NCBI GenBank assembly: GCA_026770705.1
Contig: JANJGN010000301.1
Coordinates: 62,001 to 126,000 of the forward strand
Length of the DNA: 64,000 bases
Reading direction: 5' to 3'
From: Isurus oxyrinchus
Taxonomy: Eukaryota
This document shows, piece by piece, positions 8,201 through 63,935 of the stretch (positions are counted from its first letter, which is position 1; every line of letters begins with the position of its first letter). The translations under genes and the position numbers were made by a program. A model generated the notes under the pieces. It was not told where the DNA came from, did no database searches, and saw only the letters and a list, made by a program, of their open reading frames with translations.

Positions 8201-9275
8201 ATGCAGCTCTCCGTTCTCGCTGTAGTTTGGGTGGCATTCATTGTCGGTAAGAAGTTTAAAATTTGAAAAAGGGGGCTTAATTTCTGGGAGAATCAATTTG
8301 AAAAGCAGAAAATTCATGTTAACCATGTTTCGGATCTTGATCGGACCACACTCAGATTTATGGTGAAATGTTCTGGTCTTTAATCAGACGAACACAGGCC
8401 ACAAAATAAAATGAAAAGAAACCCAATTACAATGATGGTACTAGAATTCAGCAAGAACTGTACAGACTGGGGGCCTGTCCTCTGGTAAAGAGAAACTGAA
8501 GGGGAACTGAATAGAGGTCTTCAAAATGATGAAGGAGTTCGATGGAAAATACAATTCCATTTGTGGAGGATTCCTAAAGTATGGGTTATAAATATAAGAG
8601 TCACGGAAAAGACTCAATAGGGGGTTTGCAACAACTATCTTTAATTTTTAGAATAAGGAATTCAGTGCCACAAGAAGCAGCTGAGACAAAACGTCTAGCT
8701 GTAATGAAGGGAAATGGGATAAGCGGAAGAGGGTGAAAAGGTTGGAAGGATTTGCTGAGAGAGTGAGGATGCTCTTCGTGGTTGGAAACACAGAGATGGA
8801 CCATTTGGGCCGAATGAACTGTTGTGTGCTCGAAATTACATTTGATCTATGTCACACTGACTGTGAATTTTCACTCTCAGTTCTGTTCAGTTGAAGTTTT
8901 AATCGCTGATTTCTGCTTTCTTTAATCATGTGTTCCAGATCTGAGCGATGGAGGGTCTGTTACTCAAACCTTACTCACACAGACAGAGGGAGAAGATGCC
9001 ACTTTAAACTGCACCTATACCGACGATGCTTCTTTCTTATTCTGGTACCGGCAGTACGCAGACAGACAGCCCGAGTTTGCAGTCCAGAGGCACAAGGGCG
9101 GAGGTTCAGAATTTAAGGCGGATTTCGCTCAGAGCCGGTTTTCTGATACAGTCCAGCAGACAGACAAGTCGTACCGATTGACTATCTCGGAGATACGGCT
9201 GTCTGACACCGCGGTCTATTACTGTGCACAGAGTCTCACAGTGATGAGAATGAGTGAAAGCCTCGTACAATAACT
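8201..9275 (+). CDS. Potentially functional TCR alpha/delta V segment (family C)
   Basis: Leader 8201-8246 MQLSVLAVVWVAFIV|gtaaga. Open V exon 8939-9236: DLSDGGSVTQTLLTQTEGEDATLNCTYTDDASFLFWYRQYADRQPEFAVQRHKGGGSEFKADFAQSRFSDTVQQTDKSYRLTISEIRLSDTAVYYCAQS. RSS CACAGTG (9237-9243), 23 bp, ACAATAACT (9267-9275). Confidence 0.9.
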
Positions 9276-12866: not shown

Positions 12867-13388
12867 AGTTTTTGTACGAGGCACGAGGGACCCTCATTCA
12901 CTGTGGTCCTCAGCGCGCAGTAATACACGGCGTTGTCTGTGATCTTCAAATCTTTCATGGACAAGTGAAAAGTGCTTTGTGTCATGTTGAGATCCCCGCT
13001 GAAGTGTTCAAAGCTGGGAGCCGTCTCATTAAACCCATAACTATCGGCTCTGAGAAGGTATTGAGGAGCTGGGTGTGAATACTGGCGATACCAGAACAAG
13101 CCATAGCCTGCAGCTGAAATCGATACAGAGTAAATGCAGGATTTTGCTGAATCTTCACCCTCTTTTCCTTCGACTCCTTGTTCTGACTGTGACACTGAGT
13201 CTCCGTTACTCATCTCTGAAAATAAATAACAGACACAAAGAGGCTTAGATGGGGTAACAAAAAGAGAATCATCACTTGGAGCTGGAAATGGGAAATAATA
13301 TGAGGGCTGCGGAATTTAGTAGGGAGGTTCAATTAGACCGACCTGTGTTCAGGCCAATAATTAGAGTCAGACAGAGTTTCACCTCCAT
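12867..13388 (-). CDS. Potentially functional TCR alpha/delta V segment
   Basis: Leader 13343-13388 MEVKLCLTLIIGLNT|gt. Open V exon 12906-13215 with C23, FWYRQY and DNAVYYCALRT. RSS CACAGTG (12899-12905), 23 bp, ACAAAAACT (12867-12875). Confidence 0.92.
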
Positions 13389-41413: not shown

Positions 41414-44059
41414 CCAACAGCTCATTCTATAAAATCCGGTTCAATTTCTGAATTCCAGCAAATTGTGTTTTAATTTTGTCCCATTGTGTGATTTCAACGT
41501 GACTAAAACCGGTTCCGCTGATCAACGGTCTTCGAGCTGTCGGCGGTCGCACTGCAGAAACCACTCGTTTAACCGTTCTGTTTGGAATTCAGAAACTGAA
41601 CAGTGTAAACGGTTAACAGCTGCAAGTCTCTCAAGCCGTACAATGTGAATGAGGCACCAGGTGAATAAACTCAACACAACTGCGGCAAGTTTGGATACCT
41701 GCAGTGGCTTGTTCAATACCTGACCCGGGAGAAAAACGGGAGAGTGACACAACGGACTTCAGATATAAGTGATCCTGATGTGGGTAAATATGGAATTTTA
41801 TTATTGGACAATCAATGACTGAAATTAGCGACATTGTCCCCGCCATATCTTTCAATTGTCTTCGTAGAACCAATCACTCTCCTCCTTTTCAGCCCTCAGG
41901 CTGAAACGTGAAAGTTTGGAACTGCAGACACTTCTCTCTATTTTAAAGCAGATGTTGAGAGTTGGGATTGCTGTAATTTATCTGTATCCCTGAATAATGT
42001 TAATGGAAACAACATAGTGCAGTGAGAGAATAAGGATGATGCATTAATCTTATAAAGGAGAACATGAACATAAGGGAACAATTAGAAACTGGTGGCATGA
42101 TCATTGACAACCAGCAAGAAATAACTCGTCCAAAGGGAGAAAAGGATTGGATGATCTCTGGCCGCCTTTCAAAGTGCAATCCGACCCCAGGATGCTGGGT
42201 GAGTTTTATGCAGGGGAGGACTGAAATGGACTCCAGTCTGAAATACTGTGTGAAGTTTTGGTGTCCTTACAGAAGAGAGATCAAGATGCTTTGGAAGGAG
42301 TGCAGCAAAGGTGCATCAGGCTGATTCCCGAGATGAATGGATTGTCCAATGGGAAGAGATTGAGTAGACCGGGCCTATAATCCCTAGAGTTTAAGAGGAT
42401 GAGAGGTAATCTCATGAACACAAATAGTATTCTTCAGGGGCTTTACAGGGCAGATACTGGGTGGAAGTTTCTCCAGACTGAGGAGTATGGAACTCGGGGT
42501 CACGAGGTAATGTCGATAAAAAAGTTGAAGTCAGAGCTGGGAGCCGCAATGAGGCTGCTAAAATGCCTGCTCGCTTTACTTAAAGATGCTGCACAGCGGT
42601 TGGTGCAAATGCTTCAAGTAAAGCACTCTCCAACAGAGTCCAGGTGATCGGGAAAAAACACGATCTTGGTGTTAATTGCAAGCGCAGTTTAAAGGGACGC
42701 TCGTCACTGACAGGGGGTCACCCTTTCATGCTCATTATTGCTGCACCTGTGAAGTGAACCACATCGGGAGACTCCCTGAGACACCTTGTCAGGGCATGAA
42801 CAACTTGTGGACAACGCTTATTCTGGACTTCTTCTGGGGGCATCGCCTAAAAAGAGTTACCTCGACTTCATATCTTTGTACCCTTTACAGGAGTCGCCAG
42901 GTGAAAGAGAGAACCTGGTCAAAATCATCTTATTAGCGCCCCCTTGATCTAAATGAGGAATGGGAGAAGGTAGTGAGACCAGACGGAGCAGCTCTAATTG
43001 CTCAGGGGAGACAGAGGAGAACACGGATAGTGACGTAACATCCGGCCTCCAGGCATGTTCTAATAAAAATTATGAACAATGGGGCCCTAAACTGAGCTAA
43101 ATCCAGACTTTGAAACAGTTGTAATTTATTTGTCCAGCACCATTTCGCTCCTGATTACATCCTTTAGTCAAATAGCCTCCACTCTTATGCCCAGGCTATC
43201 AGCTGAGCTGGAGGCGCCCCACACCCGGCTGTTCCCCCACCCACCGGTCCCCGACCCCCTGGCCCTGGTTGATTGGGTGAAACATGTGTTGTGACAGATA
43301 GAAGGCATTTTGACGTCATCCATTATGGGGAAATCATTGATCAGCTTCATAAAACTTGATTTCGGTCATGTTTGAGGCCGGTAACCCGCTGCGCGGCTGC
43401 GGCGGTTGATTGAAATAGAACAGGCCGATTGTAAGAGGCTGTGTTGTTCCAGTCCTCATGTGTGGTCCGTTTGTCCCGAGTGCAGAGCGGTCCGTGTCAC
43501 AGATAGAGGCCACTCCCAGCTACGCTCAATTGTGGGAGATGCTATCTTACATGTCTGGATCTAAATCCTTTCTAGTCGAGAGGTGCCCCAGTTTTCGGTT
43601 CCAACAGACAGTAAATGTCTTGTTGAGTTGAGAGAATCTCTCAGCCGATCGTAGGCAGAATCCGGGAAATCACAGGAGGCGGTGACTTCTTATCAACTCA
43701 ATCGGTAAAAGGCGGACTGGACCAAACAAGAGAGAGAAAAAAATCTCCCGGTCCCCGTAGAAAAAGGTGGCAATAAACTCACTTGAGTTATTATGAATCG
43801 GTAAAATACCGATTCATGGGAAATAATGGAGTGTGAGAATGTGAAATAATTTCATGAAGTATATTCACAGGAGCATTGGGCAGAGAGGAAAATTCAAGGG
43901 TGGGAGGAGCGAGAAGGAAATGCAGACCTGATCAGTTTAAGCACTTTATCCTGTGCGGTAAAATGCGGACAACCTTTGAGAAAATGTTCGTGAATAATGT
44001 TTGAGTTCCCAATATCCCTGCACTCTGTGTCATTGTATGTCTGTAATCCCACCATGTTC

Positions 44060-44098
44060 AGGTTTTGTACAGCTCTTTCCCTGTTCTTTATCACTGTG
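44060..44098 (-). other. Second, tandem 23-RSS downstream of the supporting V-delta
   Basis: CACAGTG (44092-44098), 23 bp, ACAAAACCT (44060-44068), within a ~57-bp tandem duplication. Confidence 0.85.
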
Positions 44099-44117
44099 TC
44101 TAATCCCTCCATGTTCA

Positions 44118-44462
44118 GGTTTTTGTATGGCACCCTCCGTGCTCTGTATCACTGTGCTGTGCGCTGACTCAGTGCACAGTAATACCCAGCGGAATCACTC
44201 AGTTGTAGTTTGGAGATATTTAACCGGCTGATTTTCTCGGCAGGATCGATAGAAGCAGAACTTCTCCCCCCAGCAGTGTTTTCTTTATCCTCTTCTCCTG
44301 AAGCATGTCTCTGAAGCAAGTAATCCGGAGCCTGTCCTGGGGACTGACGGTACCAGTGTACTGTGTACTGACAGACACCTGAATACTCACAGCTTAAAGT
44401 AACGGTGTCACCCACAGCAGAGGTTTGGACAGGCGGATTCTGGGATACAATGGAACTGGAAT
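44118..44462 (-). CDS. TRDV: NAR-TCR supporting V-delta (leaderless, extra CDR1 Cys) with consensus 23-RSS
   Basis: Acceptor ttctcctgcag|. Open exon 44157-44462: (D)SSSIVSQNPPVQTSAVGDTVTLSCEYSGVCQYTVHWYRQSPGQAPDYLL...DSAGYYCALSQRT. Non-canonical Cys at 44371-44373. No leader exon seen; the phase-1 acceptor fits the J donor at 47077. RSS CACAGTG (44150-44156), 23 bp, ACAAAAACC (44118-44126). Confidence 0.9.
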
Positions 44463-47077
44463 CTGCAGGAGAAAAATTTGATCTTAATCTATTTAGAGAC
44501 TGGGAAACTTGTTAATCGCAGTAGATGCTCTGGTTTTGGGTGAGTTTGTTTAATTTATAACATGCTTTAACTTCATTCACTGTTATTGAAATATGAAGCA
44601 GTGAAAGGATGAGGTGTTATTTTGTGTTTCAGAGCGAGTTCTTACTATTTGGCATGCATTGTCTGAACAGACGGTGAAATTGGTTAAGGGTGTTTTCCAA
44701 ACGAGTAATGGATGTATGTTGGAACATGGAAAAACACAGGGCTACGGGGAAAGAGAGTAGTGGGGATAATTGGGTTGCATTTTTAGAGGGGCAGCACCGA
44801 CAAGATGGACCGGATTTCAACTGCAGTGCAGCATGTAATGAATATTACATTTCTGTTTCTATTTTTCCAGAAGGGACATTTTATTATCAGCGAAGCAATC
44901 AGTTTCCAAAATGATTGCCCGAGACTAACCGAACTGTGTAGCATCAAAGCAAGATCCATAATAACTTGATGAGATTCATCAGCACTGATTGGGCCAAACC
45001 GATAGTGAACATAGGTGGTCAAAGGTTAATCATTTGCTGGAGTTGACCACTGCTCGGGAGTTTCTATCAACTTTTTGATCTGTTTCTCTATATTCATCTA
45101 ACATGAGGGCCCAAATTTCTCCGTGTCCTTTTAATTTGAAATATTTACAGTTACTCTCACTTTATTTTACGTTAATGTGCTGTTTGCGCTTTTTGCAATC
45201 GTGGGAACTTGTCCCAATCTCTCTCAGTTGTCGGTTGCGATCAGTCTGTTCAGTTTCCGCAGTGGTTTCCCTGTTACTCACTGGGAGCTGTCTCTTCCGG
45301 CTCTCTGACAATTTCAATTCTTTCCGCTCATTGACTGATTCTGTCCCTGGTTCTCTGAGCGGAGTATTCTCGAAGGTTTTACATTATACACAATCTGCAG
45401 AAGAGGAATAGGCCATTCGGCCTAATTGATTGATGCCTATGTTTACACTCCAAACCAGCCCTTCCTGCCCGAAATCTAAATGACCAATTCGGTCCACATC
45501 CTTCTGCCTGTTTATTCCGCTCTTCCTCTTGTATTTTGAAGTCTTCCCATAAATCTATCAATGCTCTCTGCTCCAGCCACTCCATGTGACCTCCAGTTCC
45601 ACATTCTAACACGTGTTCATGCAAATGTATTTTTCTTAATGCCTTTTATTTTCAATTAGTGGCTACCTTATAATAATCTCCTATTGCTCTGGACTCAGCC
45701 TCAAATTACCAGTTGCTCCACATCCACCCGATTGAACACATTCATAATTAAAAGGTTTCTCTGATATCTCCTCGGTTTCCTCTTTTACAATGAAAAGTGG
45801 CCCAGCCTGTTCAATCGTTCTAGAGAGACGTGGATTGTTGCTGATTGCACTTCTCAGGAATGTAAGAAATCAAAGCAGAGAACCTAACAAAGAGATGGAG
45901 AGGCTGCTATAGCACCTTTCAAACCTGCTCTGCCATTCAATAACATCGTCGCTGATCTCCATCCTCAAAATCACATTACAGCAGTGCCCCCATATCCCTT
46001 CATTCTTTTAGTATCCAAAGATCTATCGAATACCGTCCTAAGTACAGTCAGCACTGAGTATCCAAAGCTCTCTGAGGTACAGACTCACAACAATGGTTTG
46101 ACTTCTCCTCTTCTGAGTTCTAATGGCCGAATGTTTATTCTGAAACTTTGACCCATAGTTATAGACTTTCCAGCCTTGGGAAACATCCACCGGGAATCTG
46201 CCCTGACTTCCATATTACATGTTTCAAATGAGATTACATCTCAATTCCTCGAAACCCGAGGCAATATAGACCCAGACAACTCAATCTCTTCTCGTAAGAC
46301 TTTATCTCAGCAATCAGTCTGATGAAACTTTGTTGCACTCACTCCAAAGGATTTAGATCTTTCCTTAACAAAGAGGTCAAGCGTTTACCTAGCATTCCAG
46401 ACTGGACCCATTGCAGCCTGTCCCTCCATAAACCTCACCCCCCACCCTCGTGCCAGGAAGAATTTTGAACGGCTCCCAGAAATCATCCAACCTTTCTCTT
46501 GATTTCGATGATTATTGTTCTCTGATGTTCCTGTTCCCTTCTAGCAGTTTAGTGCATCATCCTCACTCTCCCACTGCTCTGTGTTGTTTTAATTTGCAGA
46601 AATCACAGATACAGATAAATTAAAGCAATCCAGTATCTCAAAAATCTACATTCAAAAGAGATAAATGTTAGCAATTCCAAACTTACAAATGATTAGGATT
46701 GTGAATCAGAGGGATTGATGGCCCCCGATGTACCAGTGAAACTAATAATGGTTCAGATGCAGCGAACCCTCATGCTCCTCCAAACTTAAAATCCCCTCCC
46801 TCACGTCCCCACACTCCATCCTCCACCCACCCTGATCCCGTTGACCGCCTAGTCTGACAGATCTCACACATAGTTTCACCTAGACATTCGACCCGGCTCC
46901 TGAATAATATTCTGCCCCCAAATCGAAAAAGCCAACAGAGAGGTTTCCTTATGAAAACCATCTGTTTTCCTTTTCGTGGGACTGAACTGACACTGAGCAC
47001 AATAAAAAGCAGCGGGTGAACATTAGCTAGGACAGGCCGCAACAGGTGTGAGGGGGAGGGTGGCTGGAGTCACTTAC

Positions 47078-47169
47078 CGGCTATGACAGTCAACATCGTA
47101 CCGGATCCATCCACAGAATCATATTTCCACCACAGTAACACTGCTCTCAGTCTCCCCGGCACAAGAACC
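47078..47169 (-). other. NAR-TCR J segment with 5' 23-RSS
   Basis: J 47078-47130 WKYDSVDGSGTMLTVIA|gtaagt has a GxGT motif and a phase-1 donor. RSS GGTTCTTGT (47161-47169), 23 bp, TACTGTG (47131-47137). Confidence 0.9.
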
Positions 47170-47483
47170 ACCGACAACTCAATCTGGCGGGAAATCATCA
47201 CCAGACAGTAGAAACTGCCATATATTCAGCGGATTGAAAAAAATAAACAATATTCAATGTTTCAAAATGTCTGCCGGCTCACACTGTGCTTTGTGAGGTC
47301 CTGAGCGCTGAGTAACTGGTCCAGGGAACGAGATGTTCGCTTCATATAAACCGAAACAAATATCAAAGAAAGATAATGGAATGGTGGAAATTACAATAAA
47401 ACGTAATCAGATTCCAGCGATGATAACATCAACCCGACAATTCAGTATCCGGGCCCGGAGAATATATATTTTAATTGTACAGA

Positions 47484-47990
47484 GCTATTTGTTCAGGCCT
47501 TTTCCTCTGTGATTAACCAATGTTGTACCTGTATTGAGCTTTACAGTAATAGTTGGCCGTGTCTTCAACTCTCACGTCCCGAATTTCCAGTGAAAATGTC
47601 TTTCCTGCTTTATTCACCGACACAACAAATCTTCCTCCGCCGGAGATCCGTTCCCGCTCTGTCCCGGTCTGGGTTTGTTTGAAGAAATGTCCATTTTGTA
47701 AATAATAATAACCATAATAAACACAGGTGATGGTGAGAGACTGACACTCCTTCCTGGTCACCGCTGCTGGGGTCTGTGTCACTGACTGACTGAAAGAGCC
47801 TGGAAATTAAACAGAGAGAGTGTAATGGACCATCAGAGCCGAACCACGGAGCGGGGTTAAACCCGCAGACATTGTCTGTAATTGGGATGGACTCGAGCAG
47901 CTTTATATTAAACCCACAACATGTCGGTTTGTTTGATCGGTACTCACGGGGTATACAGACACACAGGGTGAAAACAAGGAGGATTCCCAT
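47484..47990 (-). CDS. NAR-TCR V (IgNAR-like V domain), apparently germline-joined to D, with 12-RSS
   Basis: Leader 47948-47990 MGILLVFTLCVCIP|gtgagt. V exon 47512-47799: SFSQSVTQTPAAVTRKECQSLTITCVYYGYYYLQNGHFFKQTQTGTERERISGGGRFVVSVNKAGKTFSLEIRDVRVEDTANYYCKAQYRYNIG*. It has the VNAR-type short FR2-CDR2, YYCKA and an extra FR1 Cys (47744-47746). RSS CACAGAG (47505-47511), 12 bp, ACAAATAGC (47484-47492). Confidence 0.88.
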
Positions 47991-63591: not shown

Positions 63592-63935
63592 GGTTTTTGT
63601 ACGGTATCCGCTATATCTCTGCAGCAGTGTGGGGTCCATCGCACAGAAATATACCGCGCTGTCAGAGATCAGGATGTTACTGATCATGAGTTCGGTAATC
63701 TTTACAGTTTCATTAAACATTGCTGAAAACCGATCACTGATGTCCTTATTTCTGAATGGTATCCCTCCCAGAATATAAAGCATGTACTGTGGAGGCTGCT
63801 CGGGGCGCTGACTGTACCAGTACACATAACGGTTAGAAGTGCTTGTTTTCAATGTGCAAGCTACTGTAATATTACTTTTCTCGTCAAACGTTATTGCAGC
63901 AACCGGCAGTTCCACAATGTCTTGGTGGCTCCAGT
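63592..63935 (-). CDS. Potentially functional TCR alpha/delta V exon (family A); leader outside window
   Basis: Open exon 63632-63935 with C23, YWYSQ and DSAVYFCAMDP. RSS CACACTG (63625-63631), 24 bp, ACAAAAACC (63592-63600). Confidence 0.88.

Follow-up and report, generated by a model that had tools for sequence, protein, structure and literature searches.

Results and discussion

Composition of the cassette

The stretch of Isurus oxyrinchus DNA analysed here, in the following called the window, comprises 64,000 nt. It carries on its minus strand a leader, a VNAR-like V, a J, a 2.6-kb intron and a leaderless V-delta, all of which had been proposed in a preliminary description of the sequence and were found again. 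Counted in the window, the elements are:

47948..47990, minus strand: leader exon, MGILLVFTLCVCIP; 43 nt, phase 1, GT donor
47512..47799, minus strand: NAR-type V exon with its acceptor at 47799 and a frame that is open as far as YYCKAQYRYNIG, then a stop; probably joined to bases of D origin in the germline
47744..47746, minus strand: codon for the additional Cys of the NAR V (KEC, a-b loop)
47512..47521, minus strand: approximate D remnant at the putative germline V-D joint, exact boundary inferred
47484..47511, minus strand: 12-RSS after the NAR V, homologous to the D 3' RSS of unjoined cassettes
47170..47483, minus strand: D-J spacer; the V-D spacer is absent
47131..47169, minus strand: 23-RSS of the NAR J, one mismatch in the heptamer and one in the nonamer
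47078..47130, minus strand: NAR J segment, WKYDSVDGSGTMLTVIA, phase-1 donor G|GT
44463..47077, minus strand: J to V-delta intron, 2.6 kb
44157..44462, minus strand: leaderless supporting V-delta exon, CAG acceptor, open frame
44371..44373, minus strand: codon for the additional Cys of the supporting V-delta (GVCQ, CDR1)
44118..44156, minus strand: 23-RSS of the supporting V-delta, perfect
44060..44098, minus strand: second 23-RSS, a tandem duplicate behind the V-delta with a 58-bp period

The splice phases match as had been claimed, the donor G of the NAR J (G|GT) and the AT of the V-delta (AG|AT) forming an Asp across the splice. Each domain has the additional cysteine attributed to it, KEC in the first and GVCQ in the second. 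The NAR V is without the FR2 Trp, as the WYRK position reads GHFFKQ, and its in-frame TAA stands one base before the heptamer of the 12-RSS. The RSS of the NAR J is indeed of the 23 type, which is the norm among such cassettes. When the J to V-delta intron was inspected (44470-47070) for a leader belonging to the V-delta itself, 0 candidates for a phase-1 leader-like exon were obtained. Furthermore, no separate D was found between the NAR V and the J in the window. The term "complete", used for this module in the preliminary description, is justified insofar as the parts are present, but V and D appear already fused and a free D is missing. Similarly, the cassette is a single one only within the window, since its junction has at least 13 copies in this genome, and the largest contig, C26, carries no fewer than 67 NAR modules.

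The cassette is surrounded by 18 conventional V-like segments, of which 12 are broken, three look usable and three, though open, are missing Cys, Trp or a good RSS, in agreement with the earlier impression of mostly dead surroundings. The usable-looking conventional TCR V segments are located at 8950-9237 (plus strand), 12905-13204 (minus strand) and 63631-63918 (minus strand); all have an open frame and a good RSS, the last one with a 24-nt spacer. Tandem repetition of the supporting V-delta RSS, with a period of about 60 bp, amounts to two copies in the window (44044-44156) and to as many as eight RSS-like matches at locus L102, and is also seen in the paralogue L106.

Assignment to NAR-TCR

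The source study for NAR-TCR is reportedly that of Criscitiello from 2006. NAR-TCR is a doubly rearranging TCR-delta of cartilaginous fish (PMC1845163, PMC12227049, PMC6795676, PMC3457774), characterized, in the sections of PMC1845163 covered here, by a leader, an a-b loop Cys, the absence of Trp in WYRK and a leaderless V-delta with a CDR1 Cys. The window shows this entire set, namely its own leader, the a-b loop Cys, no WYRK Trp, a leaderless V-delta in phase and the CDR1 Cys. Compatible RSSs exist for both V domains, a 12-RSS facing the 23-RSS of the J and a perfect 23-RSS after the V-delta. What is missing from the canonical layout is the separate D between V and J.

When the first V was compared with PDB, the 20 best of 50 matches were shark single-domain V chains by name or listing (best E 3e-18; 8hgi and 7spp among them). 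In this comparison, the V at 47512-47799 does not group outside the NAR-TCR and IgNAR V sequences. An IgNAR cluster, with FR2 Trp, several D segments and constant exons after the J, can be distinguished from this cassette, which has no FR2 Trp and no free D and whose next exon is a V-delta. The VNAR of IgNAR are the best structural relatives of the first V, but IgNAR V keep the FR2 Trp and have no KEC Cys. Two protein searches yielded 53 and 73 matches, all of them automatic genome models of sharks and rays and none named NAR-TCR. The identity as a NAR-TCR cassette, a known receptor type, is supported by the VNAR structure matches together with the NAR-TCR feature set (PMC1845163). The cassette as first described is known biology; the V-D fusion is a variant layout and not the canonical V-D-J. 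At L092 (C38:12.75-12.76 Mb), a locus of different type on a contig separate from the NAR-TCR cassettes, there is at 45% identity an IgNAR-like V that retains the FR2 Trp and is accompanied by several D-type RSS pairs.

A probable V-D joint in the germline

Unjoined paralogues have the order V with a 22-RSS, about 390 bp, a D between two 12-RSSs, about 340 bp, and the J with its 23-RSS. The D-J spacer of the window is 82.7% identical over 335 nt to that of an unjoined cassette, and a comparison of the window with the 392-nt V-D spacer of this cassette gave no match. Lost in the window are the 22-RSS of the V, the V-D spacer and the 5' RSS of the D, whereas the leader intron, the 3' 12-RSS of the D, the D-J spacer and the J with its 23-RSS were kept. 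The distance from V to J is 358–379 nt in 22 VD-joined modules versus 730–801 nt in 39 unjoined ones. From the Tyr codon of YYC to the heptamer one counts 37 nt in the window but only 22–32 nt in 44 unjoined V ends; therefore, extra D-like bases are present in the window V. In trees of leader plus V (81 rows) and of the D-J spacer (58 rows), the joined families nest among unjoined ones, which makes joining the derived state. The cleanest sign of RAG joining is a younger joint, L069, in which the full V coding end is followed by two bases and then by 17 nt of D with exactly the sequence of unjoined Ds, and which from its sequence looks like a coding joint.

Loss of signal ends and spacer, fused coding ends, retained introns and inheritance are the characteristics of a V gene joined in the germline by RAG, and all of them are found here. 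Joining in germ cells by a RAG-like activity is established for shark Ig genes (PMC2193156, in the part covered). We consider it likely that in this NAR-TCR delta cassette, in which the NAR V runs into D-like bases and a 12-RSS, V was joined to D by RAG in an ancestral germ cell, and that duplication of the joined cassette afterwards produced the 13 or more copies in this genome. A search for an unjoined donor D with the 12-RSS of the window found none within two mismatches.

How such a cassette might work can be outlined from the rules of V(D)J recombination. After the germ-cell event and the duplication of the joined cassette, a single RAG reaction in a thymocyte would connect VD (12) with J (23), and two or more bases at the coding end would have to be trimmed for the in-frame TAA to disappear. 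Terminal stops are commonly removed by trimming. In a toy simulation, the stop-free share of in-frame joins was 31%, 58% and 72% with trimming of up to 3, 6 and 10 nt. The supporting V-delta would join D-delta/J-delta through its 23-RSS, and splicing would then yield a chain of leader, NAR V, V-delta and C-delta. In this chain the V domains would sit one on the other, and the cysteines of KEC and GVCQ would likely form a bond between them. Half of the CDR3 of the NAR domain would be fixed (KAQYRYNI...), and a single junction would contribute diversity where otherwise two do. Since the V-D fusion is inherited, a T cell would need one cut-and-join fewer and the binding loop would likely be less varied. 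In a model of a 95% identical white shark protein (pLDDT 76.6, pTM 0.61) the KEC Cys is placed in the loop connecting the two initial strands, and the GVCQ Cys in the B-C loop of domain two; these predicted positions fit an end-to-end stacking of the V domains. A fold search returned only scFv and diabody matches (TM 0.32–0.38), which are uninformative on domain stacking.

Copies of the joined cassette

Modules with the junction of the window were assigned to family A. The 12-RSS of the window has 13 exact copies, all adjoining a NAR V, on five contigs, nine of them on C26. They form one clade (support 100/99 and 100/100), with one diverged pseudogene relative (L087) in addition. On C26, the leader is intact in 9 of 9 family A copies, and seven of the nine are intact throughout (leader, V, J, V-delta and RSS), compared to 10 of 36 unjoined modules; as these copies are young, this intactness may reflect age.

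The joint might be real and family A nevertheless a passenger of large segmental duplications, seldom or never used owing to the terminal stop and the weaker RSS. We regard this as rather unlikely, although several observations are in its favour. The J to V-delta intron is 98.3–99.5% identical among the 12 other copies, which in C26 occur in runs with distances of 47–86 kb. The in-frame TAA, present in 13 of 13 copies, costs productive joins, and the heptamer of the 12-RSS is one position off the consensus to which most unjoined Ds conform. The V is broken in two of the nine copies on C26, L087 is a pseudogene, and the V-delta of these young copies is without a signal of selection (dN/dS 1.33 on very few changes). 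Against disuse stand a dN/dS of 0.40 for the V exon, the perfect V-delta RSS in every family A copy scored, the ease with which a terminal stop is trimmed, and an open cassette with 95% identity in white shark.

Much less probable is that the D-less layout arose without RAG activity in the germline, by ordinary deletion from the V heptamer to the 3' heptamer of the D or as a native V(12)-J(23) design. The junction of family A is indeed too diverged to be matched to one donor D, and family E has only 32 nt before the heptamer, inside the unjoined range. Yet a deletion would leave a bare V end within that range, which the 37 nt of family A exceed, and families B, C and D have 34–47 nt ending in D-like bases. 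Moreover, the joined forms lie inside the unjoined ones in the tree, and 14 fully in-frame VDJ exons show that germline joining occurs in this locus. An error of assembly, or a somatic rearrangement contributed by a lymphocyte of the tissue that was sequenced, for which only the presence of lymphocytes in shark tissue can be adduced, has a negligible chance: the same joint is found at 13 places on five contigs with diverged flanks, and also in a white shark protein model and a contig of another run, and the 13 exact copies of the 12-RSS beside a NAR V together with the nearly identical introns exclude a one-off somatic event.

NAR modules in the genome

Searching the same genome with the NAR cassette gave at least 150 matches (150 of 628 candidates were scored and all 150 match); the supporting V-delta has about 100 close matches. 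On C26 all 68 matches were fetched and one V fragment without 3' end was dropped. Of the 67 NAR modules thus classed on this contig alone, 36 are unjoined, 17 are VD-joined and 14 are VDJ-joined. These counts are lower bounds, as one more VD-joined module was found later. On the smaller contigs, which may be alternative haplotypes, the classing took in 14 NAR modules and one IgNAR-like V only. Altogether 31 of the 67 modules on C26 show partial or complete joining. In the tree, the five families of VD junctions and the two of VDJ junctions occupy different places among the unjoined modules, and judged from their sequences the joined modules on C26 come from several separate events. The two VDJ junctions are alike and may go back to one event; a shared origin might also be considered for families A and B. 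Among the open exons on C26, all 47 NAR V have the KEC Cys, and 29 of 31 supporting V-delta have the GVCQ Cys.

TCR constant exons were located at C26:29.90 Mb, within the span of the NAR cassettes on this contig, and at C242:617 kb, with a second TM-like match at C242:752 kb (C-alpha or C-delta). Between 23 and 40 Mb of C26, NAR cassettes occur in both orientations and on both sides of the constant exon at 29.9 Mb. Hence, many cassettes would need inversion and rearrangement at megabase scale.

Fully joined exons and possible multi-V chains

In each of the 14 VDJ-joined exons on C26, the CDR3-J is in frame, free of stops and has a Cys at the same position; the V exon is open in 11 of them. 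The leader has failed in 13 of 14, through several different lesions; the leaders of unjoined modules are intact in 29 of 36. For the V exons of family F, dN/dS is 0.39 at dS 0.21 (seven sequences, pairs not independent). With one exception, the 14 exons lie 3–7 kb downstream of another NAR module on the same strand, in chains headed by a leader-bearing module, and no V-delta was found between them and the upstream NAR module in the stretches fetched. Leader-dead joined NAR exons in this position between NAR module and V-delta may give rise to chains of three V or longer.

In two arrays on C26, at 37.89-37.92 Mb (L074-L077, L101, L104) and at 38.75-38.77 Mb (L080-L083, L102, L103), four tandem NAR modules precede a single supporting V-delta. 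The module at the head is intact and unjoined; behind it come three germline VDJ-joined exons, most of them leader-dead and each with the CDR3 Cys. The VD-joined family E (L032, L034, L035; C26 29.99-30.04 Mb) has an open V and leader and a decayed nonamer, and heads tandem units above VDJ-joined exons; in one such unit, all that is left of the joined exon are remnants of its leader and J.

One can extend the reading of the window to the entire locus, tentatively and as a possibility rather than a probability. RAG in germ cells would have rewritten the TCR-delta locus repeatedly, with the window cassette as an intermediate, and the fully joined NAR exons would have come to serve as internal spacers of the receptor. 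A leader-bearing NAR module would rearrange and be spliced to one to three leader-dead joined NAR exons, and these in turn to V-delta. The resulting chain would have three to five V domains, with a fixed CDR3 Cys linking every domain to its upper neighbour. The dead leaders could instead point to leader borrowing with exon skipping, as reported for a pre-joined TRD gene of a newt (PMC12698447, in the part covered).

Comparison with other joined receptor genes

With the known NAR-TCR, the window shares a leader and an IgNAR-related V, a leaderless V-delta and both cysteines, and it still needs two somatic rearrangements. The known form is made by separate VDJ rearrangements according to the parts of the sources covered, whereas here the V-D step would be inherited and only VD-to-J be left for the NAR domain. 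Germline-joined shark Ig clusters (VD-J, VDJ and VJ; PMC2193156, PMC6795676, in the sections covered) resemble the window in fused coding ends, loss of RSS and spacer, a retained leader intron and later duplication. These, however, are B-cell receptor genes in V-(D)-J-C clusters, and the window contains a T-cell receptor cassette among conventional TCR V. The V-mu-j of marsupial TCR-mu (PMC7615758, PMC3457774, likewise in part) is also a V exon that was joined in the germline, in a TCR chain with two V domains. In that chain it is the supporting domain that is completely joined, and retrotransposition was probably the cause; in the window it is the distal, antigen-binding domain that is half joined, with its intron kept. 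In the newt Pleurodeles waltl, a pre-joined V-J is found in the TRD locus (PMC12698447, portions covered), comparable insofar as a V of a TCR-delta locus was joined in the germline. Having no leader of its own, this gene borrows that of a neighbour, a precedent for the leader-dead VDJ exons on C26, but it belongs to a conventional single-V delta chain, is fully joined and has no NAR domain.

Within the portions of the literature covered (PMC1845163, PMC6795676, PMC12227049, PMC5931798, PMC7615758, PMC3457774, PMC12698447), germline-joined TCR V are known only from marsupials and newt. Our literature search, including the elephant shark supplement PMC3964593, met with no report of a germline-joined or three-V NAR-TCR; the primary NAR-TCR papers were outside this search and may describe joined cassettes. 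If the present reading holds, the activity of RAG in germ cells would extend from shark antibody genes to a T-cell receptor locus. It also predicts semi-invariant NAR domains, whose ligand could be sought directly; the ligands of NAR-TCR are unknown, as stated in the part of PMC7615758 covered. The three-V reading, if true, would amount to a new receptor architecture.

Reads and other sharks

Among the sequencing runs searched, none recorded as RNA had a stretch of the cassette. A contig of run X1 (record 7, 1126 nt) contains the V-D joint and the J in unspliced form, with 19 differences in 799 nt (window 47003-47801). It agrees with the unrearranged cassette as far as the V acceptor, beyond which another 327 letters follow, and may be spliced to a different upstream exon. 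In run X2, which we guess to be RNA, one contig of low depth has a family-F-type J joined to a NAR V acceptor, which would fit chains of three V or longer, and another contig has a spliced leader intron. The V in the spliced X2 sequence includes a stretch that is identical in six family A rows and one base off in several unjoined rows. None of the reads and contigs matched shows family A rearranged or spliced from J to V-delta, and a second read alignment, dominated by repeats, had no usable splice joint.

Some of the germline joints recur in protein models of white and basking shark, known from the automatic models alone and not from their DNA. The white shark model P0003, the 95% identical open cassette mentioned above, has the same YRYNI and the same J as the window, i.e. 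the family A junction; white shark is also the nearest named relative for the window's protein. The two VDJ families are represented by automatic NCBI models of white shark (P0001, P0005, P0019) and basking shark (P0008), and the family E junction by a further one of basking shark (P0031). P0003 is drawn with a splice from the V-D joint to just upstream of the J, which would bypass rearrangement; we reject it as a likely artefact of gene prediction, as by inspection the donor is weak and the acceptor has no pyrimidine tract. In the horn shark model P0002, NAR domains with an identical CDR3 without Cys are repeated before the supporting V-delta. This may point to a tandem of germline-joined NAR exons in a further order of sharks, where they would have arisen separately.
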